The notes: generated from the sequence alone by a model not told the origin. Positions 17,052-45,626 are shown, counted from the first letter of the stretch. The stretch is 64,000 nucleotides of DNA from Ignavibacteriota bacterium (GCA_963776275.1 CAVZMI010000014.1:32001-96000); one strand, 5' to 3'. Program-made: numbers and translations.

Positions 17052-17169
17052 TAGCCCGAAAAGCTGCTGCAATTGGTCTATCTTATAATAACTCGCTTTT
17101 TACATCGCTTGGCAATCAGAAGGAAGAGAAATAGAATTCATCAATATTATATACAAAAAAGGAAAAGTC

Positions 17170-25373: not shown

Positions 25374-25403
25374 GCCGGAGTCAGAAATGATTCCGGCTTT
25401 TTT
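25374..25403 (+). terminator. Rho-independent terminator
   Basis: GCCGGAGTCA-GAAA-TGATTCCGGC followed by TTTTTT. Confidence 0.85.
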
Positions 25404-25544: not shown

Positions 25545-25590
25545 TTGCCTTTTTGAAATTACCTTTTTATTATTGAAACGGTTCAATAAT
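25545..25590 (+). promoter_or_regulatory. Sigma-70-type promoter overlapped by a LacI-family-like operator
   Basis: TTGCCT-17nt-TATTAT; palindrome ATTATTGAAACGGTTCAATAAT (25569-25590) with central CG. A second copy occurs at 45858. Confidence 0.75.
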
Positions 25591-25743
25591 TCCTAAAATC
25601 GCTAAATATTGAGTAATATCAAGCATTATGCCCGTGGCGTTATATCATCAGGGGGTTTCTCTCTCTATATATATAGAGTAATGGTTGAATAATCCGACCG
25701 AGTGAATCCCCACCGGTTTTTTTGCAGTACAGAGATTACAATT

Positions 25744-27090
25744 ATGAGACATGGAAATATCATTATTCCAATTATCCTTATGAGTATATTCCTGTCTATT
25801 TTCCTGCTTGCCTTGCTTCCGCTTCAGCGAAGCGAGCCGGCAAGGCAGGTCTCTGAAGTATCTTCATCAGGCTTTATAGATTCTGCACAGTCAAAGCTGT
25901 CCGGCTCTTATTTTTCAGGAAAATACAGTAATCTCTTTACTGAGGTATTGAGTGAAGAAGAATCGGCAGTAAAAGCCAAAGTCGATAGTGCGTTTGACCA
26001 ATTATTTTATGGGGACAGTAGTACACAACGTATATATTGCCCTGTTGAGCCTGACATGGCATATATTTACAACATTCTCAATAATGATGTACGTACCGAG
26101 GGTATGTCGTACGGGATGATGATCTCTGTCCAGCTAAATAAGAAAAAAGAATTCGACCGATTGTGGAAGTGGTCAAAAACATACATGCAACAACAGAACG
26201 GACCACATAGAGGTTTTTTTGCATGGCATTGTAAGACAAACGGATCGGTTATCGACTCTAATGCTGCCTCCGATGGTGAGGAATGGTTTGTTATGGCTCT
26301 CTTTTTCGCGTCTGCGCGGTGGGGAAACGGGACAGGAATATACAATTATAGAGCAGAAGCTCAGGCAATTTTAGATGCAATGCTTCATAAAGAAGAAGAG
26401 CCGGATAACAATGGAAGAATAACAAATATGTTTAATAAAAAGGAGAAGCAGGTTGTTTTTGTTCCGATGGTTGGAGTTGCAGGTTTTACGGACCCCTCGT
26501 ATCATCTACCTCATTTTTATGAACTCTGGGCGCGATGGGCAGATAAAGATAACCGGTTTTGGTGCGATGCCGCATTTACAAGTCGTCAATTTCTAAAAAA
26601 AGCCGCCAATCCTTCCACGGGATTAATGCCGGATTATGCTCATTTTGACGGATCGCCTATAAATCCCTGGGGTGGGGGGAATAACGATTTCCGTTTCGAT
26701 GCCTGGCGTGTAGCTATGAATGTTGCCGTCGATTATGCATGGTTTGCTAGAGATGATTGGTCGGTAACTCAAAGTAATCGCCTTCTGAATTTCTTTTATT
26801 CCGAAGGAATGTACAAATACGGTGAGCTGTATACGTTAGACGGGAAAAGGTTAACGGACAATCACAGCAGCGGTTTGATAGCCATGAATGGTGTGGCCTG
26901 TCTTGTCTCTACGAATGAAAATAGGAAAGAATTTCTTAAGGAGTTTTGGAATACTCCCGTTCCAAGTGGGATATATCGATATTATAACGGTATGCTGTAC
27001 ATGCTGGGTCTGCTGCATGTCAGCGGCAATTTTAGAATTTATGATCCGACAGGTGGGCCGGTTCCGGCCTGTTCGGACGGACTACATTAA
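25744..27090 (+). CDS. GH8 reducing-end xylose-releasing exo-oligoxylanase (Rex)-like
   Basis: DVRTEGMSYGMM, AASDGEEW, FTDPSYHLPHFYELWA, FRFDAWR, RYYNGMLYMLGLL; N-terminal hydrophobic anchor. Start uncertain (25702 or 25744). Confidence 0.88.
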   Translation: MRHGNIIIPIILMSIFLSIFLLALLPLQRSEPARQVSEVSSSGFIDSAQSKLSGSYFSGKYSNLFTEVLSEEESAVKAKVDSAFDQLFYGDSSTQRIYCPVEPDMAYIYNILNNDVRTEGMSYGMMISVQLNKKKEFDRLWKWSKTYMQQQNGPHRGFFAWHCKTNGSVIDSNAASDGEEWFVMALFFASARWGNGTGIYNYRAEAQAILDAMLHKEEEPDNNGRITNMFNKKEKQVVFVPMVGVAGFTDPSYHLPHFYELWARWADKDNRFWCDAAFTSRQFLKKAANPSTGLMPDYAHFDGSPINPWGGGNNDFRFDAWRVAMNVAVDYAWFARDDWSVTQSNRLLNFFYSEGMYKYGELYTLDGKRLTDNHSSGLIAMNGVACLVSTNENRKEFLKEFWNTPVPSGIYRYYNGMLYMLGLLHVSGNFRIYDPTGGPVPACSDGLH

Positions 27091-27115
27091 AATTGAAATG
27101 AAATGGAGATCGCAT

Positions 27116-30112
27116 ATGCTTTTTATCAGGAATAAAAAACAGAAACAAAATCTGTATGTGCACAAATCATGCCCTCGGATTATGTCTGCCATTCTCATGG
27201 TATTTTTTGCGGTTTTCTTGTTTGCCTCGCCACGGAGTGGATATGCAAATGAAAATGCATTGTATATATCTAAACAAAAAGTGAAAGGGAGTTTTTCACT
27301 TTCCGTAGCTGGCAAAGCCGCTCCCTTATATATCAGTTCCCGGGATTTTCCCGGCGTGATTCGTGTTCTGAAGCACCTTCAGTCCGATATCGGCCGTGTA
27401 ACAAATGTCCTGCCCCGAATTTCGATCGATACCATCCCTGCATCAAAAGAGATTGTCATTGTCGGAACACTGGGTAAGAATTCTTTAATAGATAAATTGG
27501 TACAGCAAAAGAAACTCGACGTTGAGGGTATTACAGGTCGATGGGAGACATTTCTCATTCAGATCGTTGAAAAGCCGTTCCCCGATGTGGACCGCGCTCT
27601 GATAATTACGGGAAGCGATAAGCGGGGTACCATTTATGGTATGTACGACCTCTCGGAAAAGATTGGTGTGTCGCCCTGGTACTGGTGGGCGGATGTACCG
27701 GCAAAGAAAAAATCGAGTCTCTATGTATTGCCGGGACGTTACACACAGGGGGAGCCTAAAGTAAAATACAGAGGCATATTCCTTAACGATGAGGCGCCGG
27801 CATTATCAGGCATGGTCTATGAAAAGTTCGGTGGTTTCAACAGTAAATTCTATGAGCATGTATTCGAACTTATCTTACGATTAAAAGGGAATTATCTCTG
27901 GCCGGCTATGTGGAATAATTCATTCAGCACCGACGACACATTGAATCCCAAACTCGCGGATGCATACGGAGTTGTGATGGGTACTTCACATCACGAACCT
28001 ATGATGAGGGCGTGGAAAGAGTGGGAGTGGGCAGGGAATCGTAAAGGGAGCTGGGATTATTCAAAAAATGCCGATTCATTACGTAGATTCTGGAAAACAG
28101 GCATCCAGCGAACGAAAGATTATGAAAAGATCGTCACACTCGCGATGCGCGGTGATGGCGACGAACCGATGGCCGAAGGTGCCAATATATCCTTGCTCCA
28201 AAGCATTGTTTCAGATCAGCGTAAGATTCTCGGCGAGGTGACCGGAAAAGATGTTACTTCAATACCGCAGGTATGGGCGCTCTACAAAGAGGTACAGGAT
28301 TATTACGATAAAGGAATGCGGGTCCCGGATGATGTTACGTTAATATTGTGCGATGATAACTGGGGAAATATCCGGAGACTCCCGAAGTTGAACGAGAAAC
28401 CCCGCTCCGGCGGATATGGTATTTACTATCATTTCGATTTTGTGGGCGGACCGAGAAACTATAAATGGCTGAACACGACCCAGATCGAACGAGTATGGGA
28501 GCAGATGCATCTTGCCTATGAGTACGGGGCCAGACAGATCTGGATCGTCAATGTCGGTGATCTTAAACCAATGGAGTTTCCGATATCATTCTTCTTAGAG
28601 TATGCATGGGATCCCGGACAATGGCCTGTAGAACGTTTGCCCGAATATACCCGACTGTGGGCAGAACGGCAATTTGGAGCAAAGCATGCAAAGGATATCG
28701 CAGACATCTTGACGAAATACACAAAATATAATTCACGCCGAAAACCCGAAATGCTGGCCCCCGACACCTACAGTCTGGTCAATTACCGGGAAGCCGAAAT
28801 AATCGTTTCCGATTATAACACACTGGCGAAAAAAGCTCAACGTATCTATGAATTAATTCCTCATGAATACAGAGACGCATATTACCAGCTTGTTCTGCAT
28901 CCCGTGCTCGCTTGCTCAAACTTGAACGATCTCTATGTCACTGTCGGGAAAAATCTTCTTTATGCAAAGCAGGGTCGGACAGCGATAAACGCTCTCGCTG
29001 CAAAAGCAAAAAAACTCTTCGATAACGATAGTGCAATTACATACTATTATAATAGAGTAATGGCAAATGGTAAGTGGAACCATATGATGGATCAGACTCA
29101 TATCGGGTACACCTCCTGGCAGCAACCTGATGAGAATTCAATGCCCGAGGTGAAAAAGATTAATACTGACTCTATCAGCGCTGCATCGGAAATGGGTGTT
29201 GCCATAGAAGGCTCAACTGCATGGTGGCCGATGGAAAAGACCGAAGCCGTGCTCCCGGAATTCGATTCGTATAACCGGCAATCGTATTATTTCGAAATAT
29301 TCAATCGCGGGAAAGCTCCGTTTAAGTATTCGATTCAAACCGGAAAACCGTGGATTCAAATCAAACCTGGAAAGTCGGGAATAATTGAGGAAGAGAAACG
29401 GTTGTGGGTAAGTGTCGATTGGAAGAACGTACCGAAGCAAAGTAAGGGGAATGAAAGGATTCCAATCACCATTACAGGACCAAATAAAAGCCCCGTTGTT
29501 ATTCAAGCAGTGATTAATCTTCCTCAATTACCGCATGTAAAAGGTTTTATTGAGAGTAACGGATATGTTTCGATCGAGGCTGAACATTATAGCAAGGTCG
29601 TTGAAACTCCTAATATATCGTGGTTGCGAATTGCAAATTTAGGACGTACGCTATCGGCGATGACCCCTGTTCCTGTCACGGCGTCAACTCAATCTCCCGG
29701 CGGTAACAGTTCTCATATGGAATATCAAATGGTTTTATTCGATACAGGAGAAGTCAGGGTGAAGGCATATCTTTCTCCGACTATGAACCTTCTCGATGGG
29801 CAGGGTCTCCACTATGCCGTTTCTTTCGATGACGAACTGCCGTACATCGTGAATATATATGAAAACGATACAATGCCGGATTGGATATATCCGCCGCAAT
29901 GGTGTCAGGCAGTAGGCGATAATATAAAAATTAAAACCTCTACTCACTCCATCCATAAACCTGGAGAACATGTCCTGAAATTCTGGATGGTGGATCCGGG
30001 TGTGGTGCTGCAAAAATTGGTAATCGAAACCGGCAAAGTCAGGTCAAGTTATTTAGGACCGCCTGAAAGTATTCGTAGCGGATCAAAACCGATTAAGGGG
30101 AGTACAAAATGA
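27116..30112 (+). CDS. GH115 xylan alpha-(4-O-methyl)-glucuronidase
   Basis: GSDKRGTIYG, VKYRGIFLNDE, NYLWPAMW, GTSHHEPM, MRGDGD, DDNWGN, GIYYHFDFVGGPRNYKW, WIVNVGDLKPME. ATG 27116 follows GGAG. Confidence 0.93.
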   Translation: MLFIRNKKQKQNLYVHKSCPRIMSAILMVFFAVFLFASPRSGYANENALYISKQKVKGSFSLSVAGKAAPLYISSRDFPGVIRVLKHLQSDIGRVTNVLPRISIDTIPASKEIVIVGTLGKNSLIDKLVQQKKLDVEGITGRWETFLIQIVEKPFPDVDRALIITGSDKRGTIYGMYDLSEKIGVSPWYWWADVPAKKKSSLYVLPGRYTQGEPKVKYRGIFLNDEAPALSGMVYEKFGGFNSKFYEHVFELILRLKGNYLWPAMWNNSFSTDDTLNPKLADAYGVVMGTSHHEPMMRAWKEWEWAGNRKGSWDYSKNADSLRRFWKTGIQRTKDYEKIVTLAMRGDGDEPMAEGANISLLQSIVSDQRKILGEVTGKDVTSIPQVWALYKEVQDYYDKGMRVPDDVTLILCDDNWGNIRRLPKLNEKPRSGGYGIYYHFDFVGGPRNYKWLNTTQIERVWEQMHLAYEYGARQIWIVNVGDLKPMEFPISFFLEYAWDPGQWPVERLPEYTRLWAERQFGAKHAKDIADILTKYTKYNSRRKPEMLAPDTYSLVNYREAEIIVSDYNTLAKKAQRIYELIPHEYRDAYYQLVLHPVLACSNLNDLYVTVGKNLLYAKQGRTAINALAAKAKKLFDNDSAITYYYNRVMANGKWNHMMDQTHIGYTSWQQPDENSMPEVKKINTDSISAASEMGVAIEGSTAWWPMEKTEAVLPEFDSYNRQSYYFEIFNRGKAPFKYSIQTGKPWIQIKPGKSGIIEEEKRLWVSVDWKNVPKQSKGNERIPITITGPNKSPVVIQAVINLPQLPHVKGFIESNGYVSIEAEHYSKVVETPNISWLRIANLGRTLSAMTPVPVTASTQSPGGNSSHMEYQMVLFDTGEVRVKAYLSPTMNLLDGQGLHYAVSFDDELPYIVNIYENDTMPDWIYPPQWCQAVGDNIKIKTSTHSIHKPGEHVLKFWMVDPGVVLQKLVIETGKVRSSYLGPPESIRSGSKPIKGSTK

Positions 30113-30289
30113 ATGTAGTAATACGGCGTATTACGATTGGTTCGAGTATCAGGGGAATGACGAAGTGTACAAATAGTACGAATAAAATGGTGTACTGTGA
30201 ACACAAATAAATATACTTTTAAGGATATTGCTTCGTCAAATAATAATATATGAGAAATACATAAAAGCTAAAGGATAGGGAAATTAAAC

Positions 30290-31948
30290 ATGGCACAATT
30301 TATCAAGAAAAATGGACTGATAATCGCTCTTCTGATTTGTCTCCCGATCTTCAATCGAATGGATATTCTTGCAGCAGATGGAAGAGTGAAGGTAAGCGAG
30401 ACCCATCAGACAATGGAAGGCTTTGGAGCTTCGGTAGCATTCTATGTAAACTGGCTCACAAATCATCCGAATAGAGTAGATATTTATGATTTGGTCTGTA
30501 ATGATCTCGGATTGGATATTATCAGGCTTCAGAATGTCTATCGGGGTTCAGGGGGTGATTTTGATCCGGACGCAAAACAGATCGTCGAGCAGATGAATGC
30601 AATTGCGTTGGTCCCTCCTCTAGTCATGCTCTCTTCCTGGTCGCCGCCGGGAAATTTAAAGAGTAATGGGGTTCCTGAAAATGGCGGAACCTTGATTAAG
30701 GAAAACGGCAAATATGTCTATGGTGCCTTTGCACAGTATTGGGTCGATGCCCTGAACGCGTATGCGGCTGAGGGGGTCATACCGAATTATATCGGCATAC
30801 AAAATGAACCCGATTGGTCCTCGTCGTGGGCAACATGCCTCTTTGATGGTGCAGAGAATTCTACTCATGCCGGATATAATCGTGCGCTCGATTCCGTCTA
30901 TTTTGCTCTTCAACAAATGTCGTCGCCTCCGAAAATCATGGGTCCCGAAGTCCTTGGAATCGGATATAACCATTTCCAGAGTTATGCCAACCAATTCAAT
31001 CATGCCCATTTGGATGCATATGCATATCATTTGTATCACGGAGAATCTGACAATGTTAATGATAATCATAATCCGGACCTATTCATCCCGAATCTCTCGG
31101 GGATAGCAGCGAGTTATCCGGGAAAACCGATCTTTCAGACAGAATACGACCGGGGCGATTGGTTTAATACTGTCTGGTTGATAAACAATTGTCTGGTGAA
31201 TGGTAATGTTTCAGCATATTTATATTGGGAATTGACCTGGGATAAGGGCCCCGGGACAGCGTTGATCGGTCTGGAAAACCCTTGGAGCCCGGGAGGTTGG
31301 ACCACAACAGGGGGGTATATTTTAACCAACTATTACTGGGGATTCAGACAGTATTCAAAATATATCGATGCCGGATGGAAAAGAGTAACGACGGAGGTAG
31401 ATGTGGATAGTCTTCGAATGTCCGCTTTCATCAGTCCGGATGGAGATTATCTGACTGTCGTGATTCTGAATATTGCTAGTTCACCCAGGACGATGGCCGT
31501 TGATATTCAGGATTTCAACGTTATCGACGGAATAATTGTACGTACTTCCGACACAGAACAGGGTGTAATGATAAATGGTAGTTATGATGGTAAAGCAGCG
31601 ACAGAATTTCCCGCCCGCACGATTAGTACAATGGCATTTGCAGGTGCATCGACAAATAAGGCGAAAGAGGCGCCGTACAAACCTGCAGAATTCTCATTGT
31701 ATCAGAACTATCCGAATCCATTTAATCCTGTGACGGATATCGATTATTTGATAACGTCGCAAAGTTATGTCCAGATAAAAGTATATGATGTATTAGGACG
31801 TGAGGTAGCGATGTTGGTGAATGAAAAAATGCCGGCTGGAAGGCATACGGTTCATTTTGAAGCGAATGATTTGAATTCAGGAGTCTATTTATACCGGCTC
31901 AAGGCTGGAAACTTCATTCAAACGAAAAAGATGATTCTGATAAAATAG
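30290..31948 (+). CDS. Secreted GH30 (glucurono)xylanase-like hydrolase with T9SS CTD
   Basis: HQTMEGFGAS, SSWSPP, IQNEPD acid/base, YHLY, FQTEY nucleophile, AYLYW; QNYPNPFNP tail. Confidence 0.85.
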   Translation: MAQFIKKNGLIIALLICLPIFNRMDILAADGRVKVSETHQTMEGFGASVAFYVNWLTNHPNRVDIYDLVCNDLGLDIIRLQNVYRGSGGDFDPDAKQIVEQMNAIALVPPLVMLSSWSPPGNLKSNGVPENGGTLIKENGKYVYGAFAQYWVDALNAYAAEGVIPNYIGIQNEPDWSSSWATCLFDGAENSTHAGYNRALDSVYFALQQMSSPPKIMGPEVLGIGYNHFQSYANQFNHAHLDAYAYHLYHGESDNVNDNHNPDLFIPNLSGIAASYPGKPIFQTEYDRGDWFNTVWLINNCLVNGNVSAYLYWELTWDKGPGTALIGLENPWSPGGWTTTGGYILTNYYWGFRQYSKYIDAGWKRVTTEVDVDSLRMSAFISPDGDYLTVVILNIASSPRTMAVDIQDFNVIDGIIVRTSDTEQGVMINGSYDGKAATEFPARTISTMAFAGASTNKAKEAPYKPAEFSLYQNYPNPFNPVTDIDYLITSQSYVQIKVYDVLGREVAMLVNEKMPAGRHTVHFEANDLNSGVYLYRLKAGNFIQTKKMILIK

Positions 31949-32035
31949 GAATGCGACCAATAATTTGAAAAAGTAAGTAACGATAGCAATCGGGGAAAAT
32001 GTTCTTAAATAAAAAAAATATTTGAGGGTCTATCA

Positions 32036-32707
32036 ATGAATGATTTGGTTGAAAGAATTGGCCAAAGTGTTGAACGTGGAAAAATCAATAAGACATCGCC
32101 TTATCCGAGTGACATGAAGGGTCTGGACGGTGCCGATGAGTTGACGCGTCAGGCTTTGGATGCAGCTGTCGGCCCTGATTTAATCCTGCAGGCATGCAAC
32201 GATGGGATGAAGCGAATTGGAGCAAAATTCAGTAGAAATGAAGTATTTGTTCCGGAACTGTTGATGGCTGCCAAAGCCATGAAGGCAGTGATGGCCCACC
32301 TTAAACCATTTTTCCAATCGGGCAGTGTTAAAGCGAAAGGGAAATTTATCATCGGTACCGTTGCAGGCGACCTGCATGACATTGGTAAGAATCTTGTGGC
32401 AATGGTCGTAGAAGGCAATGGCTGGGAAGTCATAGATCTTGGCGTCGATGTTAAACCGACAAAATTCATTGAGACCATAAAAGAAAATCCCGGTTGTGCA
32501 GTCGGCCTGAGCGCCCTGCTGACGACGACCATGGCTAACATGTCGAAAACGGTCGAAGAAATCAGGGCTCAATTTCCTGCAATAAAAGTTATCGTTGGGG
32601 GCGCACCCGTTACTATGGAAGCCGCCTTGAAAATGGGTGCAAATGGATATTCGCCCAATCCGCAGGGTGCAGTTGCATTTCTTGATAAAGTTAATATTCC
32701 CGGATAA
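32036..32707 (+). CDS. Cobalamin-binding corrinoid protein (MtaC/MttC/MetH B12-domain-like)
   Basis: Cap domain FVPELLMAAKAM; DLHDIGKNLV (DxHxxG); DLGVDV; GLSALLTTTM; VIVGGAP. Confidence 0.95.
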   Translation: MNDLVERIGQSVERGKINKTSPYPSDMKGLDGADELTRQALDAAVGPDLILQACNDGMKRIGAKFSRNEVFVPELLMAAKAMKAVMAHLKPFFQSGSVKAKGKFIIGTVAGDLHDIGKNLVAMVVEGNGWEVIDLGVDVKPTKFIETIKENPGCAVGLSALLTTTMANMSKTVEEIRAQFPAIKVIVGGAPVTMEAALKMGANGYSPNPQGAVAFLDKVNIPG

Positions 32708-32724
32708 ATCATTATAGTGTAAAA

Positions 32725-33609
32725 ATGAGATCTCTGCTCGCAGCACTCAAAAATAGAAAAATTCTGGTCTCTGACGGGGCATGGGGTACTTTCCTGCATC
32801 AACGCGGGTTGCCGCCTGGAGAATGTCCGGAGTTATGGAATATCACGCATCGTGACGATGTCTTCGCAATTGCAAAAAGTTATATCGATGCGGGCGCTGA
32901 CATGATCCTGACAAACAGTTTTGGCGGCAGTCCATTGAAACTTGAACATTATGGCCTAAAAAATCGGGCTGCAGAGCTTAACGAAGTCGCCGCAGCAATC
33001 TCGAGAGGTGCGGCAGGAGAAAGCCATCTCGTGCTCGGCTCCATCGGGCCGACCGGCGCAGTGTTGATGATGGGGCAGGTTTCTGAACAAGAATTATATG
33101 ATGGTTTTTTTATTCAGGCTGAATCGCTGAAAAAAGGCGGGGTGGATGCAATATGCGTTGAGACTATGTCTGCAATTGATGAAGCGTGCCTGGCTATACG
33201 CGCAGCCAGAGAAGCCACCGGACTTGAAGTTGTCTGCACATTTACATTCGAAAGAACCGTCGCCGGTGAATACCGCACGATGATGGGCGTTTCTCCCGTT
33301 GAAATGGTGCATGCGGTTAAGGATGCGGGAGCTGCGATTATCGGGACCAACTGTGGTAATGGATTTGACCAGATGATTGATATTGTTAATGAAATCAGAG
33401 AAGTGGACCGGTCAACACCGGTGCTTGTTCATGCCAATGCCGGAAAACCCACGCTTAGTGATGGTAAAACAGTCTTTCCGGAAACACCGGAAATGATGGC
33501 GGCAAAAGTTCGAGACCTGATAAAAAGCGGAGCCAATATAATCGGCGGCTGTTGCGGTACAACGCCGGCTCATATCCGGGCGCTGGCGAACGAAATAAAA
33601 AAGTACTGA
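32725..33609 (+). CDS. Homocysteine S-methyltransferase family protein (stand-alone MetH Hcy-binding domain)
   Basis: DGAWGT, AGADMILTNSFG, GSIGPTG, VETM, GTNC and IIGGCCGTTP (three Zn-ligand Cys), NAGKP. Confidence 0.93.
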   Translation: MRSLLAALKNRKILVSDGAWGTFLHQRGLPPGECPELWNITHRDDVFAIAKSYIDAGADMILTNSFGGSPLKLEHYGLKNRAAELNEVAAAISRGAAGESHLVLGSIGPTGAVLMMGQVSEQELYDGFFIQAESLKKGGVDAICVETMSAIDEACLAIRAAREATGLEVVCTFTFERTVAGEYRTMMGVSPVEMVHAVKDAGAAIIGTNCGNGFDQMIDIVNEIREVDRSTPVLVHANAGKPTLSDGKTVFPETPEMMAAKVRDLIKSGANIIGGCCGTTPAHIRALANEIKKY

Positions 33610-34361
33610 TGAATATTATTATGCCTCAAGCCGAACGACCAGATGAGATTGTTGAAGTCCCAATAGACTTCAACGATCTTACAGTAAGCAAAAATGAGAT
33701 TGAGTTTTCACTTGGATATTCCGAAGATAAAATTCCATCGCATTTTGAAGAAATGATAGATGATATTCTATCGCAGTTATCGGGACGTTGTGAAATAAGT
33801 GCCGGATACCGGATCGTCGATGTCAAAAAGCCTGTTGACCGGTATGACGGTCTATATGTCGGAGGTAAGTTTTTCAAGATGCAAAAGATCGTTACCGGTC
33901 AGCTCAGGAAAGCCGAAAAGGCGGCGTTATTTGTCTGTACCATCGGACCAAAAATGGAAACATGGGCCAGACAACTTATGCAGAATGGTGATACTGTGGC
34001 AAGTCATATCGTTGATACAATCGCGTCGGAGGTAGTAGAAAGTGCGACCGATATATTGCATGATCGTATAGAGCAACAAATGCGGGTACATGGGATGAGC
34101 GTAACCAATAGATACAGCCCGGGTTATTGTGACTGGTCGGTATCTGAACAACATTTGCTCTTTTCATTTCTCCCGGCAAATTTTTGTGGCATAAAATTAA
34201 CGGAATCCGCACTGATGGTGCCGATTAAATCTATCAGTGGTATTATCGGAGTCGGTGCAACAGTCAAGCGTGCAGACTACATATGCGATCGATGTGGAAT
34301 AAAAGACTGCACTTATCGGGCGTTCCTTTTAGCGCGAAACCAGCGTATCATTCATAAATAA
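33609..34361 (+). CDS. Stand-alone B12-dependent methionine synthase reactivation (AdoMet-binding) domain protein
   Basis: ALFVCTIG, RYSPGYCDW, GIKLTESALMVPIKSISGIIG, C-terminal CxxCxxxxC. TGATG coupling with the upstream gene. Confidence 0.88.
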   Translation: MNIIMPQAERPDEIVEVPIDFNDLTVSKNEIEFSLGYSEDKIPSHFEEMIDDILSQLSGRCEISAGYRIVDVKKPVDRYDGLYVGGKFFKMQKIVTGQLRKAEKAALFVCTIGPKMETWARQLMQNGDTVASHIVDTIASEVVESATDILHDRIEQQMRVHGMSVTNRYSPGYCDWSVSEQHLLFSFLPANFCGIKLTESALMVPIKSISGIIGVGATVKRADYICDRCGIKDCTYRAFLLARNQRIIHK

Positions 34362-34395
34362 ATTCATATCGAATTATAGGGAAAGAACAAATAGA

Positions 34396-35420: not shown

Positions 35421-35428
35421 GCAGGCAA

Positions 35429-37381: not shown

Positions 37382-38619
37382 TGGATAGAATTTTATACTC
37401 TGTTCTCCTTATCATCGTTCCGGTATTTTCTTCGTGCGGCATGCCTGTGATGACACAGGATTCGTCAGCCACCGAGGAAAAGCTCCGAACCATTGCCTCG
37501 ATGATACTCAGGGACGCGACATTCCAGTTTGTAGATCAGAAGAGCGGACAGCGATATCGCACTCCCCAAGATGCATCGCCGGATATTCAGATAGGGCTGG
37601 AAAGTCCCTATAACGATTGGCGGTACTGGAACGGCGTTCTGAATATCGCGATGATCAGACTGGCCGAAGTACTTCGTGAGCCGGCATATGCCGAATTTTC
37701 GTTCAGGAATATCGCTTTTAGCTTCGATCACTACCAATATTTTGAAAAGATGTATAAAGGCGAAGGGAAGTGGAACTATCCTTTCGGGCAGCGGTTCATC
37801 ATGGAAGAATTGGACGACTGCGGTGCTATGGGTGCAAGTGTCATTGAAGTGTACCGCCGTGATCCGCAGGATCGCTATCGCGCATATATCGATCAGGCTG
37901 CCGAACATATATCCGTAATACAAAATCGAATGGAGGATGGAACTCTTGTACGGTCGTTCCCGCGAAAATGGACACTCTGGGCGGATGATCTGTACATGGG
38001 ACTCTCGTTCCTGACTCGTATGGGTGAATTGACGGGTGAAAGCCGCTATTTCGACGATGCAGCCCGGCAGGTTATCAACTACCATAAATACCTTTTTGAC
38101 GGGGAGCTAGGACTCATGCATCATTGCTGGTATTCGGATCTCCAGCGTCCGGGTATTGCCTACTGGGGGCGTGCGAATGGGTGGGCACTGTTGGCACAAA
38201 TCGATTTACTCGATCGATTGCCGAACAATCATCCTCAGCGTGATACATTGCTCCTCCTTCTTCAACGACACATCAAAGGGATCGCACGGTATCAAAGCAG
38301 CGAAGGCCTGTGGCATCAACTGCTAGACAAACCAGATTCATTTCTGGAAACATCCTGCAGTGCGATGTTCACGTATGTGACGGCACGAGCCGTCAATAAA
38401 GGGTATATCGATGCGAGTTTTATTCCGGTCGCTCTGCAGGGATGGCAGGGAGTGATTTCGAAGATACATCCGGATGGACAGATCGAAGGTATTTGCACCG
38501 GAACCGGAGTCAGTGAGAATCTGCAATTCTACTATCAACGACCGACACCGCTCAATGATGTCCATGGTATTGGCGCGATATTGCTGGCCGGTACAGAGGT
38601 GCTGCAACTGCAAAAGTAA
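37381..38619 (+). CDS. GH105/GH88 unsaturated glycuronyl hydrolase, probable lipoprotein
   Basis: LDDCG, LWADDLYM, WGRANGW, GLWHQLLD, ETSCSAMF, ICTGT; FSSC lipobox. Confidence 0.9.
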   Translation: MDRILYSVLLIIVPVFSSCGMPVMTQDSSATEEKLRTIASMILRDATFQFVDQKSGQRYRTPQDASPDIQIGLESPYNDWRYWNGVLNIAMIRLAEVLREPAYAEFSFRNIAFSFDHYQYFEKMYKGEGKWNYPFGQRFIMEELDDCGAMGASVIEVYRRDPQDRYRAYIDQAAEHISVIQNRMEDGTLVRSFPRKWTLWADDLYMGLSFLTRMGELTGESRYFDDAARQVINYHKYLFDGELGLMHHCWYSDLQRPGIAYWGRANGWALLAQIDLLDRLPNNHPQRDTLLLLLQRHIKGIARYQSSEGLWHQLLDKPDSFLETSCSAMFTYVTARAVNKGYIDASFIPVALQGWQGVISKIHPDGQIEGICTGTGVSENLQFYYQRPTPLNDVHGIGAILLAGTEVLQLQK

Positions 38620-38663
38620 TCCGTTCAGCGGATATTACAGATGTATATCTTTATTAGTCACTT

Positions 38664-41195
38664 TTGGATATTATGATATTTACTCAAAGGCATCTATTGT
38701 TTTCCAAAGCAGGGAAATCGATTCTCCTTTTAATATCTAATCTTCTTTTTGTTGGATTCTGTCAAGCCCAAATTCCCGGAGTTGATCTGAAGTTAAATAA
38801 TCTCGGATATTTTGAAACACGTGGGCTCGATATACTGGTTTTCAATAACTGGTACGACAGCAATTTCGGCGATGCAAAAATGAGCGGAGTTGAAATTATC
38901 CATCATGGGGTGCGTACAGCAACCAACGGCGATGTGAGACTCAGCCCTACACCCGCACAATGGGATTCCATTCCGCGACTCGTAGAACGCAGAGTGAATA
39001 AAAAAGATAGTAGTATTGAAGTTTTTTTACAATATCCTGCATATGCCTTTGCTTACATGATCAAAGCCCAGGCACATGACGGAGGCATTCTTCTAAGCGT
39101 CAATCTTGAAAAACCGATACCTAAAGACCTTGAAGGTTGTGCCGGGTTCAATTTCGAATTTCTTCCTTCCGCGTATTTTGAAAAAACATATCTGGTGGAC
39201 GGTAAAAGCGGCATTTTCCCATTATATCCTACCGGACCCATGGAAGCAAAGGAGTCAGGTAAGGTTCAACCCTTGCCGATCGCCTCAGGGAAATCTTTTG
39301 TACTTGCCCCGGAAGATCCGGCTCGACGAATTACCATCAAAACCAAAGACAGCGAACTTCTTCTATATGATGGCCGCAACATGGCACAGAACGGCTGGTT
39401 TGTGATTCGCAGCCTTCTTCCTTCCGGAAAATCAGGTAAAGTAATCGAATGGTTTCTCGAAGCCGGTACAATTCCGGGCTGGACGCGGCCGCCGGTGATT
39501 GCGCATTCACAGATCGGATATCATCCCGATCAAATAAAAATTGCGGTGATTGAATTAGATAAAAACGATACTTCACTCCAGTCGGCGCGCTTGCTTCAGG
39601 TACGTGAGGATGGAGAATTCGTCGAAATATTTAAGGGCGATCTAAGAACTTGGGGCGGGTATCTCCGGTACAATTATTCTACCTTTGATTTCTCGTCCGT
39701 AAAAGAGAGCGGCCTGTACGTCATTGAATATAATTCAGTTCGAACAAAACCATTCAGAATAGCAGCCGACATTTATAAAAATGCATGGCACCCGACACTC
39801 GATATTTTTTTCCCGGTTCAGATGGATCATATGAGAGTCAGGGAAGCTTACCGGATTTGGCATGGTGCATCTCATCTTGACGATGCGTTACAGGCTCCGG
39901 TGAATCATGAACATTTCGATCTATATGCGCAGGGTCCGACAACGGATTCTCCGTATAAACCGGGCGAGCATATTCCCGGTTTAAATATCGGAGGCTGGTA
40001 TGATGCCGGCGATCACGATATCCGGACTCAGACTCAATATTATACAGTATTAAATCTGGTCCATGTGTGGGAGACTTTCGGTTTACGGCGGGATGAAACA
40101 ACAATAGACCAGAAAAAACGCTATGTGGAAATACATCATCCAGATGGAATTCCCGACCTTCTACAACAGATAGAGCATGGCGCGCTTGCTCTCATAGCTC
40201 AACATCGGGCTGTCGGTCACGCAATTCCAGGTATCATAGTGCCCGATCTCTCACAATATACGCATCTGGGCGACGCGGCATCAATTACGGACAATCTCGT
40301 ATACAATTCCAAGCTGAAACCGCTCGAGACCGATGGATTCACTAGCGGTACGTTCGATGATCGATGGGCATTTACCAGCAAATCTACTCCGTTGAATTAT
40401 GGCTCAATTGCTGCACTCGCCGCGGCGAGTCGCGCCCTTCATGGATACAATGACACGCTGGCTGATGAATGTCTGGCAACAGCAAGAAAAGCGTGGGACG
40501 AAGAACACAGCCATGAGCCGGATATTTTTTATCACGGGAACACCGCCGGAGGTTTGTTGGAGATAGAGGAAATGCAGGCGAGTGTCGAACTTTTACTCTG
40601 CACGAAAGAAACCAAGTACGCAGATAGAATAAACGAGCTGCTGCCAAAAATTGAAAATAGATTCGGTTTCATTGCCGGGATGGTTGTTCGCGCCATACCT
40701 TATATGGATGTGGCATATTCAAAAAATATTGAAGATCTTGTAAGGGACTACAAATATACTCTCGATAAGTTGAACGAACAGAATCCCTTCGGTGTCCCTA
40801 TTACCGCCGGTAACTGGGGAGGAGTAGGAGCAGTTATGGGATTTTCATTGACGAATTATTTTTTGCATAAATCTTTTCCCCAGATTATTGGAAAGGAATA
40901 TGTTTTTAATGGATTGAACTATATTTTTGGATGCCACCCGGGTTCCGACATTTCGTTCGTCTCGGGTATAGGAACTCAATCGAAGAGAATCGCCTATGGG
41001 AACAACCGTGCTGATTATTCATTCATTGCCGGCGGCATAGTTCCGGGAGTCCTTATTCTTAAGCCGGATTTCCCCGAAAATAAAGAAGATTGGCCCTTCC
41101 TGTGGGGAGAGAATGAATATGTAATCAGTATGGGATCAATTTATATTTATCTGGTAAATGCAGCAAACGAATTATTGAACAGTACTGGGGATTGA
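38664..41195 (+). CDS. GH9-family glycoside hydrolase with N-terminal extension and Ig-like domain
   Basis: SQIGYHP...K.AV, GGWYDAGDH, LNYIFGCHP...SFVSGIG, WGENEY. Start uncertain. Confidence 0.85.
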   Translation: MDIMIFTQRHLLFSKAGKSILLLISNLLFVGFCQAQIPGVDLKLNNLGYFETRGLDILVFNNWYDSNFGDAKMSGVEIIHHGVRTATNGDVRLSPTPAQWDSIPRLVERRVNKKDSSIEVFLQYPAYAFAYMIKAQAHDGGILLSVNLEKPIPKDLEGCAGFNFEFLPSAYFEKTYLVDGKSGIFPLYPTGPMEAKESGKVQPLPIASGKSFVLAPEDPARRITIKTKDSELLLYDGRNMAQNGWFVIRSLLPSGKSGKVIEWFLEAGTIPGWTRPPVIAHSQIGYHPDQIKIAVIELDKNDTSLQSARLLQVREDGEFVEIFKGDLRTWGGYLRYNYSTFDFSSVKESGLYVIEYNSVRTKPFRIAADIYKNAWHPTLDIFFPVQMDHMRVREAYRIWHGASHLDDALQAPVNHEHFDLYAQGPTTDSPYKPGEHIPGLNIGGWYDAGDHDIRTQTQYYTVLNLVHVWETFGLRRDETTIDQKKRYVEIHHPDGIPDLLQQIEHGALALIAQHRAVGHAIPGIIVPDLSQYTHLGDAASITDNLVYNSKLKPLETDGFTSGTFDDRWAFTSKSTPLNYGSIAALAAASRALHGYNDTLADECLATARKAWDEEHSHEPDIFYHGNTAGGLLEIEEMQASVELLLCTKETKYADRINELLPKIENRFGFIAGMVVRAIPYMDVAYSKNIEDLVRDYKYTLDKLNEQNPFGVPITAGNWGGVGAVMGFSLTNYFLHKSFPQIIGKEYVFNGLNYIFGCHPGSDISFVSGIGTQSKRIAYGNNRADYSFIAGGIVPGVLILKPDFPENKEDWPFLWGENEYVISMGSIYIYLVNAANELLNSTGD

Positions 41196-41281
41196 CAATA
41201 AAAATAAAAGAGAAGTTCTGCCAGGGAAAAATAAAATTTCTATTGGGGGAGAACAACCTGACAAGAGAAGGGGAGATTAAC

Positions 41282-44179
41282 GTGACGCAGATAAATCGTT
41301 ATAGAATATTAACTAGTATAGTCATCATGGCCGTTTTATTTGTAATGAGTGCTCTTGGCCAGAATGCGCGGGATCTGGTGAAGGGCAATTTAATTCAATT
41401 CAATGACAACGGCGCCTGGTGCTGGTATCAGGATGAGCGGGCAGTTGTCGATATCGCGGGCGGTAAGATAATTATTGGTTCGGATGCAAGCGGATCTGGT
41501 GTAGGTGGGTCGGACCGCAATGGGGAGATAGACGCGGTTATCTTCGATCTTCAGACTGGATTGATGCAGAAGTCTGTTCTTATGGCGGCTAAAGTACTGG
41601 GCTGCGATGATCATAATGCACCAGCTTTTCTAGTCCATCCCGACGGATCGGGAAAATATCTGGTAATGTATACCGGGCACAATAATAATAACCTCACATA
41701 CTACCGTACATACGATGGCGGTGTCTGGGGGGCGCAGCATACATTCGATTGGAATACTCAACCCGGCGGTACCGATTTTGCCACAACATATTCGAATATC
41801 CATTACCTTTCTGCGGAAGGTCGCATTTACAACAATGCCAGAGGAAACGGTCATGGTGGCCAGAATCTCATGATTTCAAGTAATCTGGGAGATACATGGT
41901 CGTATGGTGGATTCCTCACGAATAATGCGAACATCGGATATGTCAATGGATACTTTAAATATTGCGATAACGGCGTCGATCGTATTGATTTTACTTGTAC
42001 CGAATATCATCCACGCGACTATAACACAAGCATTTATCATGGCTACGTTAAAAATGGCCAGACATTCAAATCAGATGGAACACTCGTCGACAGTACAATT
42101 TTTGACAAAGTTCCCACAACACCTCAGAGTTATACACCGGTTTTTATTACCGGTACCGTGGTCAACGGTATGACTATGACACGTTGCTGGAATATAGATG
42201 TCCAGAGATATGCCGATAGCACGATTACAGCTCTCATCAAAGCACGCGTGAATGATAATCCAAGTAGTCCTTCGCAGGATCCGGACCATTGTTATCTTTA
42301 TTGCCGCTATGATGGCCAGAGCTGGACTTATACATATCTCGGCAAAGCCGGTAAAAAACTTTATTCCAGTGAGCAGGATTATACAGGTTTGGGAGCGTTG
42401 TGCCCTAATGACCCGAATACCATCTACATATCAACACCCTACGATCCCCGAAATGATTCTGACCTGATCGTTCATGAAATATATAAAGGAGTCACTTCTG
42501 ATCATGGAGCAACGTGGACGTGGACACCGATCACGCAGAAATCTGTCCGCGATAACCTTCGGCCGATCGTCCCTGCATGGGACACAAATAATACCGCCTT
42601 ACTCTGGTGGAGGGGAACGTATACCGCCGCTCAAAGTTATAATGCAGCAATTGTCGGCATTCTGGATCGGCCTTCGGAAACGTTGAGTAAAATGACCTAT
42701 GTAGATGCCACAACCGCAAACACAATTCTTTCCACGGGTGAACCATTGACAACCACCGGACCTGATACGAGTGCATGACCAGCGGACAACCAATGGCATC
42801 AACGAACGGATCGCGGCAACGGCGGTTCTGTTTTCACATCGTCAGAGGTTAACCGTGAAAATGCACCTATGCTCAAGACGCAGGTTACAATACCGGTCAC
42901 GGGGGTTTATGATATCTGGGTCAACTTCTGGGGAAATCCTACTAAGAGTACAGACTGGCGGATCAAGGCAGGACTCGATACCAGTCATATGCAAATATTC
43001 CGGCAAATGGCGTGTAAGGAAGTTGAAAATGGCGACCATGAAAGCACACTCGTTCTCTCCGGCAGCGACAATACATTCCTCTATCAGGCGTATGTCGGAC
43101 GCGTCCAGGTATTGGCAAACAACACCTTTGATGTTTTCGTCGACGATGACACGATCAGAACAGGCGCACTAATTCCTCCCACAGGAAGCGTCCGCACTTG
43201 GTATGACGGTGTTAGTTATGCCATCGTGAATGGTTCCAGTACTGCACCAGTGTTCGCTCTGTCGGCACCTGAAATCAATTTCGGAACGATACGAAATGAC
43301 TCTACAAAGAAGGACAGTGTGCTTGTTTCCAATCCTGGAAACGATACACTGCGGATCACGGCAATCTCATCAACCAATGCGCGCTTTATCTTTGCACCTG
43401 CGACAATGACACTTGCACCGTTGGGAAGTGCTTATCTGGTAGTAACGTTTGCACCTCAGGATACGTCGAGTCAGTTCGGACTCATCATTTTTACACATAA
43501 TGCATTGAGTTCACCGGATACACTCGCCATCAGCGGAAAGGGAAGCGCCGTGCCTGTACCGGTGTTCTCTCTTTCGGGAACTGCAATCAATTTCACGACG
43601 GTATCAATTGGTTCTACAAAGAAAGACAGCGTTCTTGTTTCCAACCCCGGCACCGATACACTAAAAATCACGGCAATCTCATCAACCAATGCACGCTTTA
43701 CCTTTATACCTGCGACGATGACACTCGCACCATCGGGAGGTACATATCTGGTAGTAACGTTTGCACCTCAGGATACGTCGAACCAATCCGGCCTCATCAT
43801 TTTTACGCATAATGCATTGGGTTCGCCGGATACGCTTTCCGTCAGCGGGAAGGGGAGCGCTGCGGTTGCGGTTGAACATGATAAAACACAAATCCCGACC
43901 GAGTACGTGCTCAATCAGAATTATCCCAATCCGTTTAATCCCTCGACTGAGATCAGATTCGCCGTTCCGGTTGCTTCTCACGCATCGCTGGTTGTGTACG
44001 ACATCCTCGGGAGAGAAGTCGCCGCTCTGGTAAATGGGAATATTGAAGCCGGATATTATACGGCAATATGGAATGCATCATCGATGTCAGGTGGTATCTA
44101 CTTTGCGAAGTTCACTGCGAATGGCGAGGCCGGGAAACTCAAATACAGCAAGGTGAATAAAATGTTGCTCATGAAATAA
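41282..44179 (+). CDS. Secreted BNR_4-type beta-propeller protein with two Ig-like domains and T9SS CTD; interrupted by in-frame TGA at 42776-42778
   Basis: NGAWCWYQDERA, DDHNAPA, Asp-boxes S.NLGDTW and TSDHGATW, NLRP. ORFs 41192..42778 and 42869..44179 share one frame, reading SA*PADNQWH. QNYPNPFNP tail. Confidence 0.8.
43248..43860 (+). repeat. Tandem duplicated Ig-like (ASH/choice-of-anchor D-like) domains
   Basis: PVF.LS...INF...STKKDSVLVSNPG.DTL.ITAISSTNARF...VVTFAPQDTS...SGKGSA occurs twice and is similar at DNA level. Confidence 0.85.
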
Positions 44180-44248
44180 ACCGGATCGCGTTTTCCAACA
44201 AAATGGGAACGTTTTAACGGATAAATATTAATTGACAGATAATAAAAT

Positions 44249-45626
44249 ATGATGTATCGTAAACTAACAATCGAAAAAGCGGAGGACCTGATTTTTGGGT
44301 ATGCTCCGCATCCTGTTACAACTCCACGGGGATTAGTCATCGGAGGCGGATTTGTATATCCCGAATTGAATTTTACTTTACCCCCGATGCAAATAAATAA
44401 TGAAACCTTATCAGAGGTGAAAGGCCACTATCGCCAGATAGTTACAGATGCGCTCGAGCATGCCGTGCATCTTCATTCGAGAGGAGTAATACTCGAGTTT
44501 GAGACCCTGACCGAAATGACACAAACGCCCGATATAGGTGTTGAACTGATAAAAATCATGAATGAAATCTGTGAAAATTATTATGTGCAGCATGGTTTGA
44601 AAAGCGAAATCAGATTGACTCCGAACGATCTGCGTGAGTTTGAAAGGCCGCCCAGGCAGAGGACATCCCATCTGCTGCAACCAATGCTGGAGTTATTCGA
44701 GAGAGGAGCCCGGGCCGGAGGAGATATGTTGTCGATCGAATCAACCGGAGGGAAAGAAATTTCCGATGACGCGCTTATGATGTGTGATATGAAACAATTT
44801 ATATTCAGCCAGTCGGTATTGGGGGTGCGCGACATGCAGATGCTCTGGGGAAAAATAGTAGAGATTGCTTCCCGTACGGGGAAAATCGCCGGAGGTGATA
44901 CGGCATGTGCATTCGGCAATACGGCTATGGTACTGGCCGAGAGAAAATATATCCCTAAGATTTTTGCTGCGATCGCAAGGGTAGCCACTGTCGTACGGAC
45001 GCTGGTGGCAGTCGAGAAAGGAGCGCGAGGTGCCGAATAAGGACTGCGCATACGAAGGACCGTACCTGAAGGCGATTACAGGCATTCCGATTTCAATGGA
45101 AGGAAAAACTTCCGCCTGTGCTCATTTCAGTCCCCTGGGAAATATCGCCGCAGCCTGTGCTGATCTGTGGAGCAACGAAACGGTTCAAAATATTAAATTG
45201 CTCTCAGGGATGGCGCCTACAGTATACCTTGAACAACTTGAATATGACACAAGGCTTATGAACCAGGCAGTTATATGTGGAAAGGGCGAGATACTTCAAC
45301 TCCAAAAACTCTTTGTCAATTCGGATGTTTATTTCGATCCGCAGGCATTTGTGCTTTCGCCCGATAATGTCATAGAAATCTCGAAAGAAATTGTGAAGGG
45401 TGAAAGCTATATCGACGCAACGAAGCGGGGCTGCCTGAAAGCGTTGGCTCTCGTTGCGGAGGCAATAAAAACGGGCCGGGTGATCCGCGATCCTAAGGAA
45501 GACGAATGGTTCATCATTCTCCGACAGGATATTGAAATGATACCTGTTAATGAATCGGATTTCGTGGAGCTGGTTCTACCCACTTTAGATCAAACGAAGC
45601 TACTCTTAAATGAGTATGGCTTATGA
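44249..45626 (+). CDS. mtaB: Methanol:corrinoid methyltransferase MtaB; frameshift near 45032
   Basis: DLIFGYAPHPVTT..GLVIGGG.VYPELNF, LSIESTGGKE, GDTACAFGNTAM. Removing one G gives GARGPNKDCAYEG...ITGIPISMEGKTSACAH.SPLGN...DLWSNE.VQN. Putative Zn ligands Glu/Cys/Cys are retained. Confidence 0.92.

Follow-up and report, generated by a model that had tools for sequence, protein, structure and literature searches.

What would the parts of a cobalamin-dependent methyl-transfer system be doing among genes for the breakdown of xylan? The question is raised by a 64,000-nucleotide stretch of DNA from an Ignavibacteriota bacterium (GCA_963776275.1, CAVZMI010000014.1:32001-96000; hereafter the window), in which a corrinoid protein, a stand-alone homocysteine S-methyltransferase (HcyMT), a protein resembling the activation domain of the methionine synthase MetH (the activator), a URO-D-fold protein and an MtaB-family methanol:corrinoid methyltransferase are encoded among glycoside hydrolases (GHs). 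From 25,572 to 45,626 these genes form a single co-oriented, closely packed series downstream of a LacI-type operator. An earlier note on this DNA had suggested that the locus removes the O-methyl group of 4-O-methyl-glucuronate (MeGlcA), or uses glycan-derived methanol, and makes methionine.

Here we propose that the genes from GH8 to MtaB make up a hemicellulose operon under LacI control that includes a cytoplasmic cobalamin relay. This relay would O-demethylate MeGlcA, the URO-D-fold protein acting as the first methyltransferase (MT1), homocysteine as the methyl acceptor and MtaB as an accessory entry for methanol. We put the probability of this reading at about one in two.

The window comes from contig C14, which belongs to a metagenome-assembled genome (MAG) of 3.7 Mb in 38 contigs, 96% complete with 5.3% contamination. 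Gene families were assigned by Pfam scans of its open reading frames (ORFs), and reading frames were compared with a same-genus genome (G001) of 93-95% nucleotide identity that is syntenic across window positions 14848-55596. A scan of one genome per species for relatives of the URO-D-fold protein returned 501, and the loci of the best 80 of these (64-81% identity) were analysed by mapping the window proteins onto them and by clustering 1,021 ORFs, the clusters being named by Pfam and NCBIfam. Of these 80 loci, 57 have at least 7 kb upstream, 46 have both flanks of at least 7 kb, and 76 could be scored for the gene immediately upstream. Co-occurrence was counted in a class sample of 201 genomes, the window's own included (URO-D ortholog at E<=1e-60, stand-alone HcyMT at E<=1e-70), and in a phylum sample of 401 genomes.

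The URO-D-fold protein and its partners

The URO-D-fold protein (34396-35420, + strand; PF01208) is the component to which the proposal assigns the donor-side step. Its frame is broken in the window, and its C-terminal fragment scores 101.7 bits to PF01208 against a gathering threshold of 23.9. In a Foldseek search ranked by TM-score and root-mean-square deviation, the top structural match of its model (pLDDT 91.7) is the methylcobalamin:coenzyme M (CoM) methyltransferase MtaA (4AY7; TM 0.80-0.81, 3.2 Å), with true decarboxylase structures close behind (TM 0.75-0.79, 3.6-4.0 Å). By profile the protein is about equally distant from HemE and MtaA: it reaches 55.8 bits against the HemE model TIGR01464, whose cut-off is 302.95, and 41 bits against an MtaA model with a cut-off of 400. 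By sequence, its closest solved relatives are true uroporphyrinogen decarboxylases, and a weak profile match over about 130 residues links it to CdmB of Acetobacterium (9RUI; E 1.6e-5).

At the residue level, the column of the decarboxylase catalytic Asp (human D86) holds Ser81, and the invariant C244 aligns with the Cys of the MtaA H-x-C motif. His239 sits five residues before C244 rather than two as in H-x-C, and C319 lies two positions off the second Cys of MtaA and is not kept in paralogues. A genuine hemE was considered for this gene and rejected, given the HemE score far under its cut-off, the change of the catalytic Asp to Ser81 and the setting in a sugar rather than a haem operon.

A complex between the corrinoid protein and the URO-D-fold protein was predicted with a score of 0.81, the best of three controls reaching 0.00; 58 of 80 solved complexes reach the mark used for this score, as do 2 of 110 mismatched pairs. 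Separate runs agree in at least 73% of contacts, the pLDDT of the partner is at least 92, and the predicted interface includes URO-D residues 245-246, which adjoin C244. The prediction supports binding of the corrinoid protein to the URO-D-fold protein.

Further members of the fold were seen beside these genes in other species. Some of the 80 loci hold a second paralogue (URO2), 20-24% identical and with C244 kept, which lies either directly 3' of the first copy or within a cassette of its own in the order corrinoid protein, URO2, activator and HcyMT (examples are L064:11069-12088, L067:11042-12067, L054:13729-14775 and L043:15432-16436). A 33%-identical relative adjoins GH115 at G467:C28:2050-5409, and the association with GH115 may thus reach beyond the clade of 64-81% identity.

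The proposed carrier of the methyl group, the corrinoid protein (32036-32707, + strand), is made up of a PF02607 (B12-binding_2) cap and a PF02310 (B12-binding) Rossmann domain and has no signal peptide. The run G111-D112-L113-H114-D115-I116-G117, which contains the DxHxxG motif, is invariant in 34 sequences, and the protein reaches 162 bits with the MtgC model, whose cut-off is 370 bits. HcyMT, a protein of 294 amino acids encoded at 32725-33609 (+ strand; PF02574, S-methyl_trans, 3e-68), keeps C210, C276 and C277 in all of 34 sequences, and we take these residues to be the zinc site of the MetH homocysteine (Hcy) domain.

The activator (33609-34361, + strand, in an ORF that opens at 33552; PF02965, Met_synt_B12-like, 1e-12) matches the activation-domain protein 1J6R of Thermotoga maritima. 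Invariant in 30 sequences are an RxxxGY motif (R187..G191-Y192), presumably the S-adenosylmethionine motif of MetH, and the cysteines C193, C245, C248 and C253. These four cysteines are, to our knowledge, absent from the MetH activation domain; C193 and the C-x2-C-x4-C near the C-terminus may form a metal or iron-sulfur site and are a candidate electron input. Based on these features, we propose the activator as a putative reductive reactivator of the corrinoid protein, one that is not of the ATP-dependent type described for O-demethylases.

Three of the five module types of MetH (Hcy, cap plus B12, and activation) are therefore represented here as separate proteins, each scoring far below the 1010-bit MetH cut-off (TIGR02082). 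In contrast to MetH, the locus has no pterin-binding (methyl-tetrahydrofolate) module, and the sole PF00809 match in the genome is the canonical metH on contig C7; the donor module would be replaced by the URO-D-fold protein and MtaB. MetE was not found in the source genome, which is 96% complete. The possibility that the module is the sole methionine synthase of the organism is ruled out by the canonical metH, and the module is therefore not needed simply for making methionine.

Gene linkage in related genomes

At 75-81% identity, the URO-D-fold protein has relatives in more than 120 protein clusters. The best 80 of the 501 relatives come from MAGs and isolates labelled as Ignavibacteriota, Melioribacteraceae, Rosettibacter, Calditrichota, Kryptoniota, Neomarinimicrobiota, Chitinispirillaceae, Fibrobacteres, KSB1, Lentisphaerae, Verrucomicrobiota, Opitutaceae, Spirochaetaceae, Bacteroidales and others. 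The typical order is a divergent LacI gene followed by GH8, GH115, GH43, the corrinoid protein, HcyMT, the activator and the URO-D gene, and then, 3' of the latter, a PF00756 esterase and a sugar-acid transporter of the anion:cation symporter type (TIGR00893) in the major facilitator superfamily (MFS). Typical loci also carry UxuA and a D-mannonate oxidoreductase in divergent orientation, and often UxaC, a PfkB kinase resembling 2-keto-3-deoxygluconate kinase, a nickel-dependent hexonate epimerase, xylA and xylB.

GH115 is present in 30 of the 80 loci, and in 27 of the 57 with at least 7 kb upstream. Within the latter set, at least two members of the corrinoid protein, HcyMT and activator cassette were found in 31 loci; GH115 and the cassette occur together in 18, GH115 without the cassette in 9, and neither in 17. 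Any xylan or uronate gene was found in 42 of the 46 loci with both flanks. The gene directly 5' of URO-D is the activator in 34 of 76 cases and HcyMT in 7. Genes for the transport or catabolism of hexuronates occur in 30 of the 80 loci, and in one (L103) a cluster of UxaC and a tripartite ATP-independent periplasmic (TRAP) transporter directly adjoins the URO-D gene. Other settings occur as well: L082 and L087 have a different sugar context, and L096 and L099 have GH94 and an MFS_2 transporter.

At the level of whole genomes, the class sample holds 19 carriers of a URO-D ortholog and 19 of GH115 among 201; 16 have both, three have GH115 only, 179 have neither, and three have the URO-D ortholog only (G087, G114 and G215, of which G114 and G215 have GH67). 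Where both are present they lie on one contig in 14 of 16 genomes and within 12 kb in 8. A stand-alone HcyMT-like gene was found in 17 of the 19 URO-D carriers versus 15 of the 182 non-carriers, and in the phylum sample GH115 is present in all 16 URO-D carriers; the sampled genomes are mutually related, so that all these counts overstate independence, and the association covers nine genera in the class sample.

In five loci (L035, L038, L043, L053 and L060) the gene directly 5' of URO-D encodes PurU, a formyltetrahydrofolate deformylase with Formyl_trans_N and ACT domains, and four of these five have no trio of corrinoid protein, HcyMT and activator nearby. This adjacency hints at a folate-linked oxidation of the methyl group to formate in those lineages.

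The same loci bear on the view that the URO-D-fold protein is no methyltransferase, and catalyses some other, decarboxylase- or isomerase-like step on (methyl)glucuronate while the trio is an independent, co-located split methionine synthase. The true decarboxylases as nearest solved relatives by sequence, the 26 of 57 loci without the cassette in the flank examined, and PurU as a neighbour in five loci would all suit it. We nevertheless consider it improbable: the decarboxylase catalytic Asp is replaced, the order from the corrinoid protein through HcyMT and the activator to URO-D is kept across phyla with very short gaps, stand-alone HcyMT accompanies the gene in nearly all carrier genomes (17/19), the corrinoid-protein interface is predicted well above its controls (0.81 versus 0.00 at best), and PurU itself suggests one-carbon metabolism. 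Moreover, a trio with neither a donor-side enzyme nor a pterin-binding domain could not make methionine.

The picture is different for MtaB (44249-45626, + strand; PF12176), which the earlier note had counted among the linked genes. In the window its frame is broken, with PF12176 matches at positions 4-263 and 264-452 on two frames (2e-86 and 1e-60) and 391 bits against the 720-bit cut-off of the NCBIfam equivalog; the form in G001 is intact, with 458 amino acids. A full MtaB accompanies the URO-D gene in just two loci out of 80, and L037 adds a partial copy; in other families of the same order MtaB (42-48% identical) stands beside an MtaC-like gene with no glycoside hydrolases. MtaB is thereby ruled out as part of the conserved core. 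Conservation of the linkage in relatives, which the earlier note had set as a test of its idea, is thus seen for the URO-D gene and its cassette with xylan-glucuronate loci in several phyla and fails for MtaB.

Compact modules of corrinoid protein, HcyMT and MtaB occur in other Ignavibacteria (L107:2295-5169 and L111:9651-11237), and a cluster of MtaB, corrinoid protein, URO2, activator and HcyMT at L106:8164-13056. No xylan genes lie near the MtaB modules of these three loci. They look like methanol:homocysteine methyltransferases, that is, methanol-driven methionine synthases. Since such combinations exist elsewhere, MtaB may be viewed as a second input in the genus studied here, where it would be an accessory methanol entry for the relay.

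These modules also invite the opposite emphasis: a methionine synthase driven by methanol or free one-carbon units that merely belongs to the xylan regulon, its corrinoid loaded by MtaB or another enzyme, with the URO-D-fold protein as an MtaA-like acceptor-side enzyme for a second thiol or as a methylthiol-type transferase, in either case unconnected with MeGlcA. This corresponds to the glycan-derived methanol that the earlier note had named as an alternative. MtaB is in the operon and intact in G001, modules with no URO-D gene exist (L107 and L111), MtaB is enriched in URO-D carriers (6 of 19 versus 8 of 182 non-carriers in the class sample), and MtaA, the top structural match of the URO-D-fold protein, is an enzyme of the second, acceptor-side type (MT2). 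Even so, this account seems quite unlikely, since 13 of the 19 carrier genomes have no MtaB at all and full copies are as rare in the loci as stated above, so that such a relay would usually lack its donor-side enzyme. It would also leave unexplained the link of URO-D to GH115 and hexuronate genes, including in loci without the cassette.

A proposed route for the methyl group of glucuronoxylan

Glucuronoxylan carries no methyl group other than its 4-O-methyl ether. In 77 of the 80 loci, which have no full MtaB nearby, the URO-D-fold protein is the sole donor-side candidate, and its companions are GH115 and hexuronate genes; MeGlcA is therefore proposed as the donor. In the scheme that we suggest, secreted or periplasmic GH10, GH30 and GH8 enzymes together with GH115 would release MeGlcA from glucuronoxylan, as expected from what is known of these families. 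MeGlcA would then enter the cell, and sugar-acid transporter genes adjoin the module in other species and are present at other places in the source genome. The glycoside hydrolases of the operon have signal or lipoprotein-like N-termini and the five methyl-transfer proteins have none.

Inside the cell, the URO-D-fold protein (MT1) would move the ether methyl of MeGlcA to Co(I) of the corrinoid protein, and the glucuronate left by demethylation would pass into the UxaC/UxuB/UxuA pathway. The stand-alone HcyMT (MT2) would make methionine, as its homology and conserved zinc-site cysteines suggest, and the activator would restore corrinoid oxidised to Co(II). Methanol would be a second source of methyl groups for the corrinoid protein, fed in by MtaB, in the genus studied here and in a few other lineages. 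The relay from MeGlcA or methanol envisaged in the earlier note is thus retained in its outline by the linkage of URO-D and the cassette, the co-occurrence with GH115 and the coupling of MtaB to corrinoid protein and HcyMT, and given up in its emphasis on MtaB.

A narrower claim is that cobalamin-dependent O-demethylases of a new clade, founded by the URO-D-fold protein, act on an aliphatic carbohydrate ether, MeGlcA, with homocysteine as acceptor and the activator, as an iron-sulfur or zinc protein, reactivating the corrinoid; in some lineages MtaB would feed in methanol, so that the system would also be a methanol:homocysteine methyltransferase. We hold this tentatively, at slightly less than even odds.

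A number of points weigh against the proposed relay. The assignment of the URO-D-fold protein as a methyltransferase combines its fold and gene context with a single aligned Cys and a predicted complex, and its score against the MtaA/CmuA model TIGR01463 is 54.6 bits, where the cut-off is 235.4; the complex prediction may in part reflect likeness to solved methyltransferase/corrinoid complexes. We know of corrinoid O-demethylases for aryl methyl ethers and of corrinoid enzymes for methanol, and of none for an aliphatic sugar ether, which has a poorer leaving group. The flux of methyl groups from MeGlcA would probably far exceed the demand for methionine, and a further sink or a recycling of homocysteine would be needed; the source genome already has its canonical metH. 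Among loci with at least 7 kb upstream, 13 of 57 have the cassette with no GH115 nearby, and L073 and L074 have no carbohydrate context. In the phylum sample, 41 of the 57 genomes with GH115 have no URO-D-fold protein, including all 38 outside the class. If the frame breaks in URO-D and MtaB were real, the relay would be dead in this strain. Lastly, a PF00756 (CE1-type) esterase is present in 18 of the 80 loci and lies directly 3' of URO-D in 11, which fits an aryl (ferulate) donor.

This last observation leads to an alternative in which the relay is the same and the donor is a xylan-associated aryl methyl ether, such as ferulate, sinapate or lignin fragments that the adjacent esterase would release, the URO-D-fold protein being an aryl O-demethylase like MtvB or MtoB with homocysteine as acceptor. 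The chemistry has precedent, the MT1 enzymes of aryl O-demethylation are treated as relatives of the MtaA/CmuA family (PMC8630106), and there is the weak match to CdmB. We regard this donor as unlikely. GH115 is a commoner partner than the esterase (30 versus 18 of the 80 loci), and minimal loci of the form GH115-URO-MFS1 and GH115-GH43-URO-GH88 have no esterase; the neighbours are sugar-acid transporters and UxaC, UxuA and UxuB rather than aromatic-acid genes; co-occurrence at the genome level is with GH115 or GH67; and the likeness to CdmB, the sole aryl O-demethylase structure matched, is marginal, at about 130 residues.

With MeGlcA as the preferred donor, the proposed system can be set beside those already described. 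Its architecture is the known three-component corrinoid one, from which it differs in the acceptor module, the type of reactivator, the putative substrate class and the setting in a glycan operon. The aryl methyl ether O-demethylases (MtvABC of Moorella, MtoABCD of Methermicoccus and those of Acetobacterium and Desulfitobacterium) follow the same logic of MT1, DxHxxG carrier, MT2 and a separate reactivator of Co(II) (PMC8630106). Their acceptor enzyme is a methyltransferase for tetrahydrofolate (THF) or tetrahydromethanopterin, whereas here it is a MetH-type homocysteine domain. Their reactivator is an ATP-dependent activase, and the one here is MetH-activation-like with four cysteines. The donor here would be a sugar methyl ether, and the genes lie in a glycoside-hydrolase operon with a LacI-family operator.

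The MtaB/MtaC/MtaA methanol system resembles the locus in that MtaB and a corrinoid protein of the cognate type are present and the URO-D-fold protein is structurally nearest to MtaA (4AY7). Unlike that system, there is no MtaC beside MtaB, the sole corrinoid protein lying 11.5 kb upstream; the acceptor would be homocysteine rather than CoM or THF; and MtaB is dispensable for the conserved module. A modular precedent is given by MtgBCD of Ruegeria pomeroyi, in which demethylation of glycine betaine and synthesis of methionine share one cobalamin-binding protein (PMC12478193); there the donor is glycine betaine, the MT1 is of the MttB family, the host is an aerobic marine bacterium and there is no glycan context. 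Demethylation of a methylated sugar has been described within marine polysaccharide-utilisation loci, where a P450 acts on 6-O-methyl-galactose and opens its catabolism (PMC6292453). That enzyme is oxygen-dependent, oxidative and unrelated, whereas the system here would be oxygen-free and methyl-conserving and would act on another sugar. A full-text literature search, with subscription journals and supplementary tables outside its reach, found no paper that connects corrinoid, cobalamin or URO-D-family genes with GH115 or MeGlcA; the one source that contains both MeGlcA and demethylation (PMC13425298) concerns a methanol assay for glucuronoyl esterase.

If correct, the proposed clade would account for the missing anoxic fate of the methyl group in glucuronoxylan, and would do so widely among glycan degraders of peat, soil and sediment, including Ignavibacteria, Calditrichota, Kryptoniota and Marinisomatota. 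Few polymers on land are more abundant than glucuronoxylan, and we know of no description of how anaerobes dispose of its 4-O-methyl group and thereby open the isomerase pathway to the uronate. The decay of hemicellulose would be coupled directly to the pools of methionine and one-carbon units and to the demand for B12, and full use of hemicellulose by peat, soil and sediment communities would require cobalamin. Corrinoid O-demethylation would be extended from aryl ethers to sugars, with a methionine-forming outlet. Cultured carriers exist, for example Rosettibacter primus (L065) and Melioribacter, and the proposal is directly testable in them. For annotation, genes labelled "uroporphyrinogen decarboxylase family" in xylan loci should not be equated with haem enzymes.

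The operon, its frames and its neighbourhood

The boundaries and regulatory sites support the string from GH8 to MtaB as one predicted regulated unit of a xylose/xylan regulon. At the 5' boundary, an intrinsic-terminator-like hairpin at 25374-25397 (+ strand; a 10-bp stem with six GC pairs and a TTTTTT tail) ends the upstream GH3-CBM6 gene (CBM, carbohydrate-binding module). It is followed by a putative operator, a near-palindromic LacI-family 16-mer at 25572-25587, overlapped by a consensus match to a sigma-70-like promoter at 25545-25573 (+ strand; TTGCCT, 17 nt, TATTAT); promoter-like sites are not enriched as a class (48 found versus 42.3 expected from shuffles). The 16-mer has two exact copies in the 3.7-Mb genome, and the other lies about 70 nt 5' of a LacI-xylB-xylA cluster on contig C28; the LacI of this cluster shares 62% identity with the one that, in other species, lies upstream of GH8/GH115 in divergent orientation. 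A further copy with one mismatch (45860-45875) falls between MtaB and GH10, which are 518 nt apart, and marks where a new regulated unit begins; that unit comprises GH10, a PfkB kinase, GH3, GH116 and an MFS_2 transporter. The motif occurs at the same two positions in G001, and its 38 matches in 1.36 Mb of related loci lie mostly between LacI and GH8/GH115 or before xylA, GH3 or aldose epimerase.

The LacI-type operator described in the earlier note is thus borne out by a 16-mer common to this unit and the LacI-xylBA cluster that recurs in other species. The same is true of its statement that the genes are co-oriented with gaps under about 180 nt, all being on the + strand with gaps of -4 to 177 nt across 25702-45626. 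The note saw no internal terminator; terminator-like sites within the unit are weak and not above the shuffled expectation (23 found versus 17.9 +/- 3.8). Co-orientation alone is weak evidence for an operon here, since all genes of the 64-kb window with at least 150 amino acids and a family match or conserved synteny are on the + strand, and the listed - strand ORFs are all nested in + strand genes.

The gene list from GH8 to MtaB given in the earlier note was confirmed by Pfam, with the exception of a BNR_4 protein. The unit (all on the + strand) opens with a Rex-like GH8 (25702-27090; PF01270, 1.7e-29) that has an N-terminal hydrophobic signal or anchor segment and a counterpart upstream of GH115 in 15 of the 80 related loci. 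Next comes the GH115 alpha-(4-O-methyl)-glucuronidase (27098-30112; PF15979, 3e-157; GH115_C, 5e-60), single-copy in the source genome and with a hydrophobic N-terminus; its ORF opens at 26888, and 27098 is the likely start. A GH30-like protein (30290-31948) has weak GH30/GH30C matches, a weak XynC-like match, a signal peptide and a Por_Secre_tail, the sorting tail of the type IX secretion system (T9SS). Downstream of the URO-D gene lie Pfam-assigned GH97 (35429-37381; lipoprotein-like N-terminus; 4 of the 80 loci), a hydrolase similar to unsaturated uronyl hydrolases of the GH88/GH105 type (37381-38619; PF07470, 2e-79, a model that spans GH88/GH105; lipoprotein-like N-terminus) and GH9 (38664-41195; Pfam, with a CelD_N Ig-like domain and a signal peptide; 8 of the 80 loci).

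Between GH9 and MtaB lies a secreted T9SS protein (41192-44179) in which an N-terminal domain without family is followed by ASH/choice-of-anchor-D Ig domains; homologues occur in 7 of the 80 related loci. For its N-terminal part (ORF 41192-42778) no Pfam match was found even at E<=10, and BNR_4 was pointed to by an ESM-feature (language-model) search alone, with a score of 0.92, which we treat as a lead. The N-terminal domain, which takes up about 520 of the protein's roughly 1,000 amino acids, is a candidate for a carbohydrate-active domain of an undescribed kind (a homologue is found, for example, at L011:11423-14410).

GH88/105-type hydrolases occur in 13 of the 80 loci, immediately 3' of the URO-D gene in six (L045, L049, L052, L086, L090 and L091). 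No lyase that would yield an unsaturated uronate from xylan is evident in the xylan loci with such a hydrolase. Formation of hexenuronate from MeGlcA with loss of methanol, which MtaB would capture, is a speculative link to this enzyme; no lyase candidate for the beta-elimination was found, and MtaB is rare.

Several reading frames are broken in this assembly. Relative to G001, one G is missing from a G-run near 34644 in the URO-D gene and another near 46449 in GH10 (46145-47385), one extra base is present near 45032 in MtaB, and an in-frame TGA at 42776-42778 splits what is a single 995-amino-acid ORF of the T9SS protein in G001. Contigs from an independent peat data set have intact forms at the three frameshift sites (URO-D, MtaB and GH10); they represent a relative about 95% identical to the window and cannot tell whether its frameshifts are real. 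Splits are also found in a sigma-54 activator (2497-3994) and in the canonical metH (contig C7:1471-4958). As the breaks are many and include the housekeeping metH, we read them as probable consensus errors of the assembly.

The breaks, which affect two of the five methyl genes, are also what would be expected if the linkage were accidental or the module were decaying and no longer working in this strain, and all genes of the 64 kb are co-oriented anyway. We find this highly improbable in view of a linkage conserved in dozens of species and of frames that are intact in G001 and in the independent peat data set; damage that extends to the sigma-54 activator, GH10 and metH points to assembly errors rather than to targeted decay.

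The region 5' of the operon is a large mixed island for glucan and xylan degradation. From 4603 to 21537 the + strand encodes a SusC-like TonB receptor and several family-less genes, followed by a CBM9/T9SS protein, an SSF symporter, a GH94 phosphorylase and a GDSL/TPR protein. Closer to the operon, an 850-bp insertion relative to G001 (21650-22600) opens with a copy of the beginning of the GH3-CBM6 gene, ~90 bases that include its start codon and signal peptide, at 84-87% identity. The GH3-CBM6 gene itself is 72% identical to its counterpart in G001, where its neighbours are more than 90% identical, and the arrangement resembles a scar of recombination or gene replacement.

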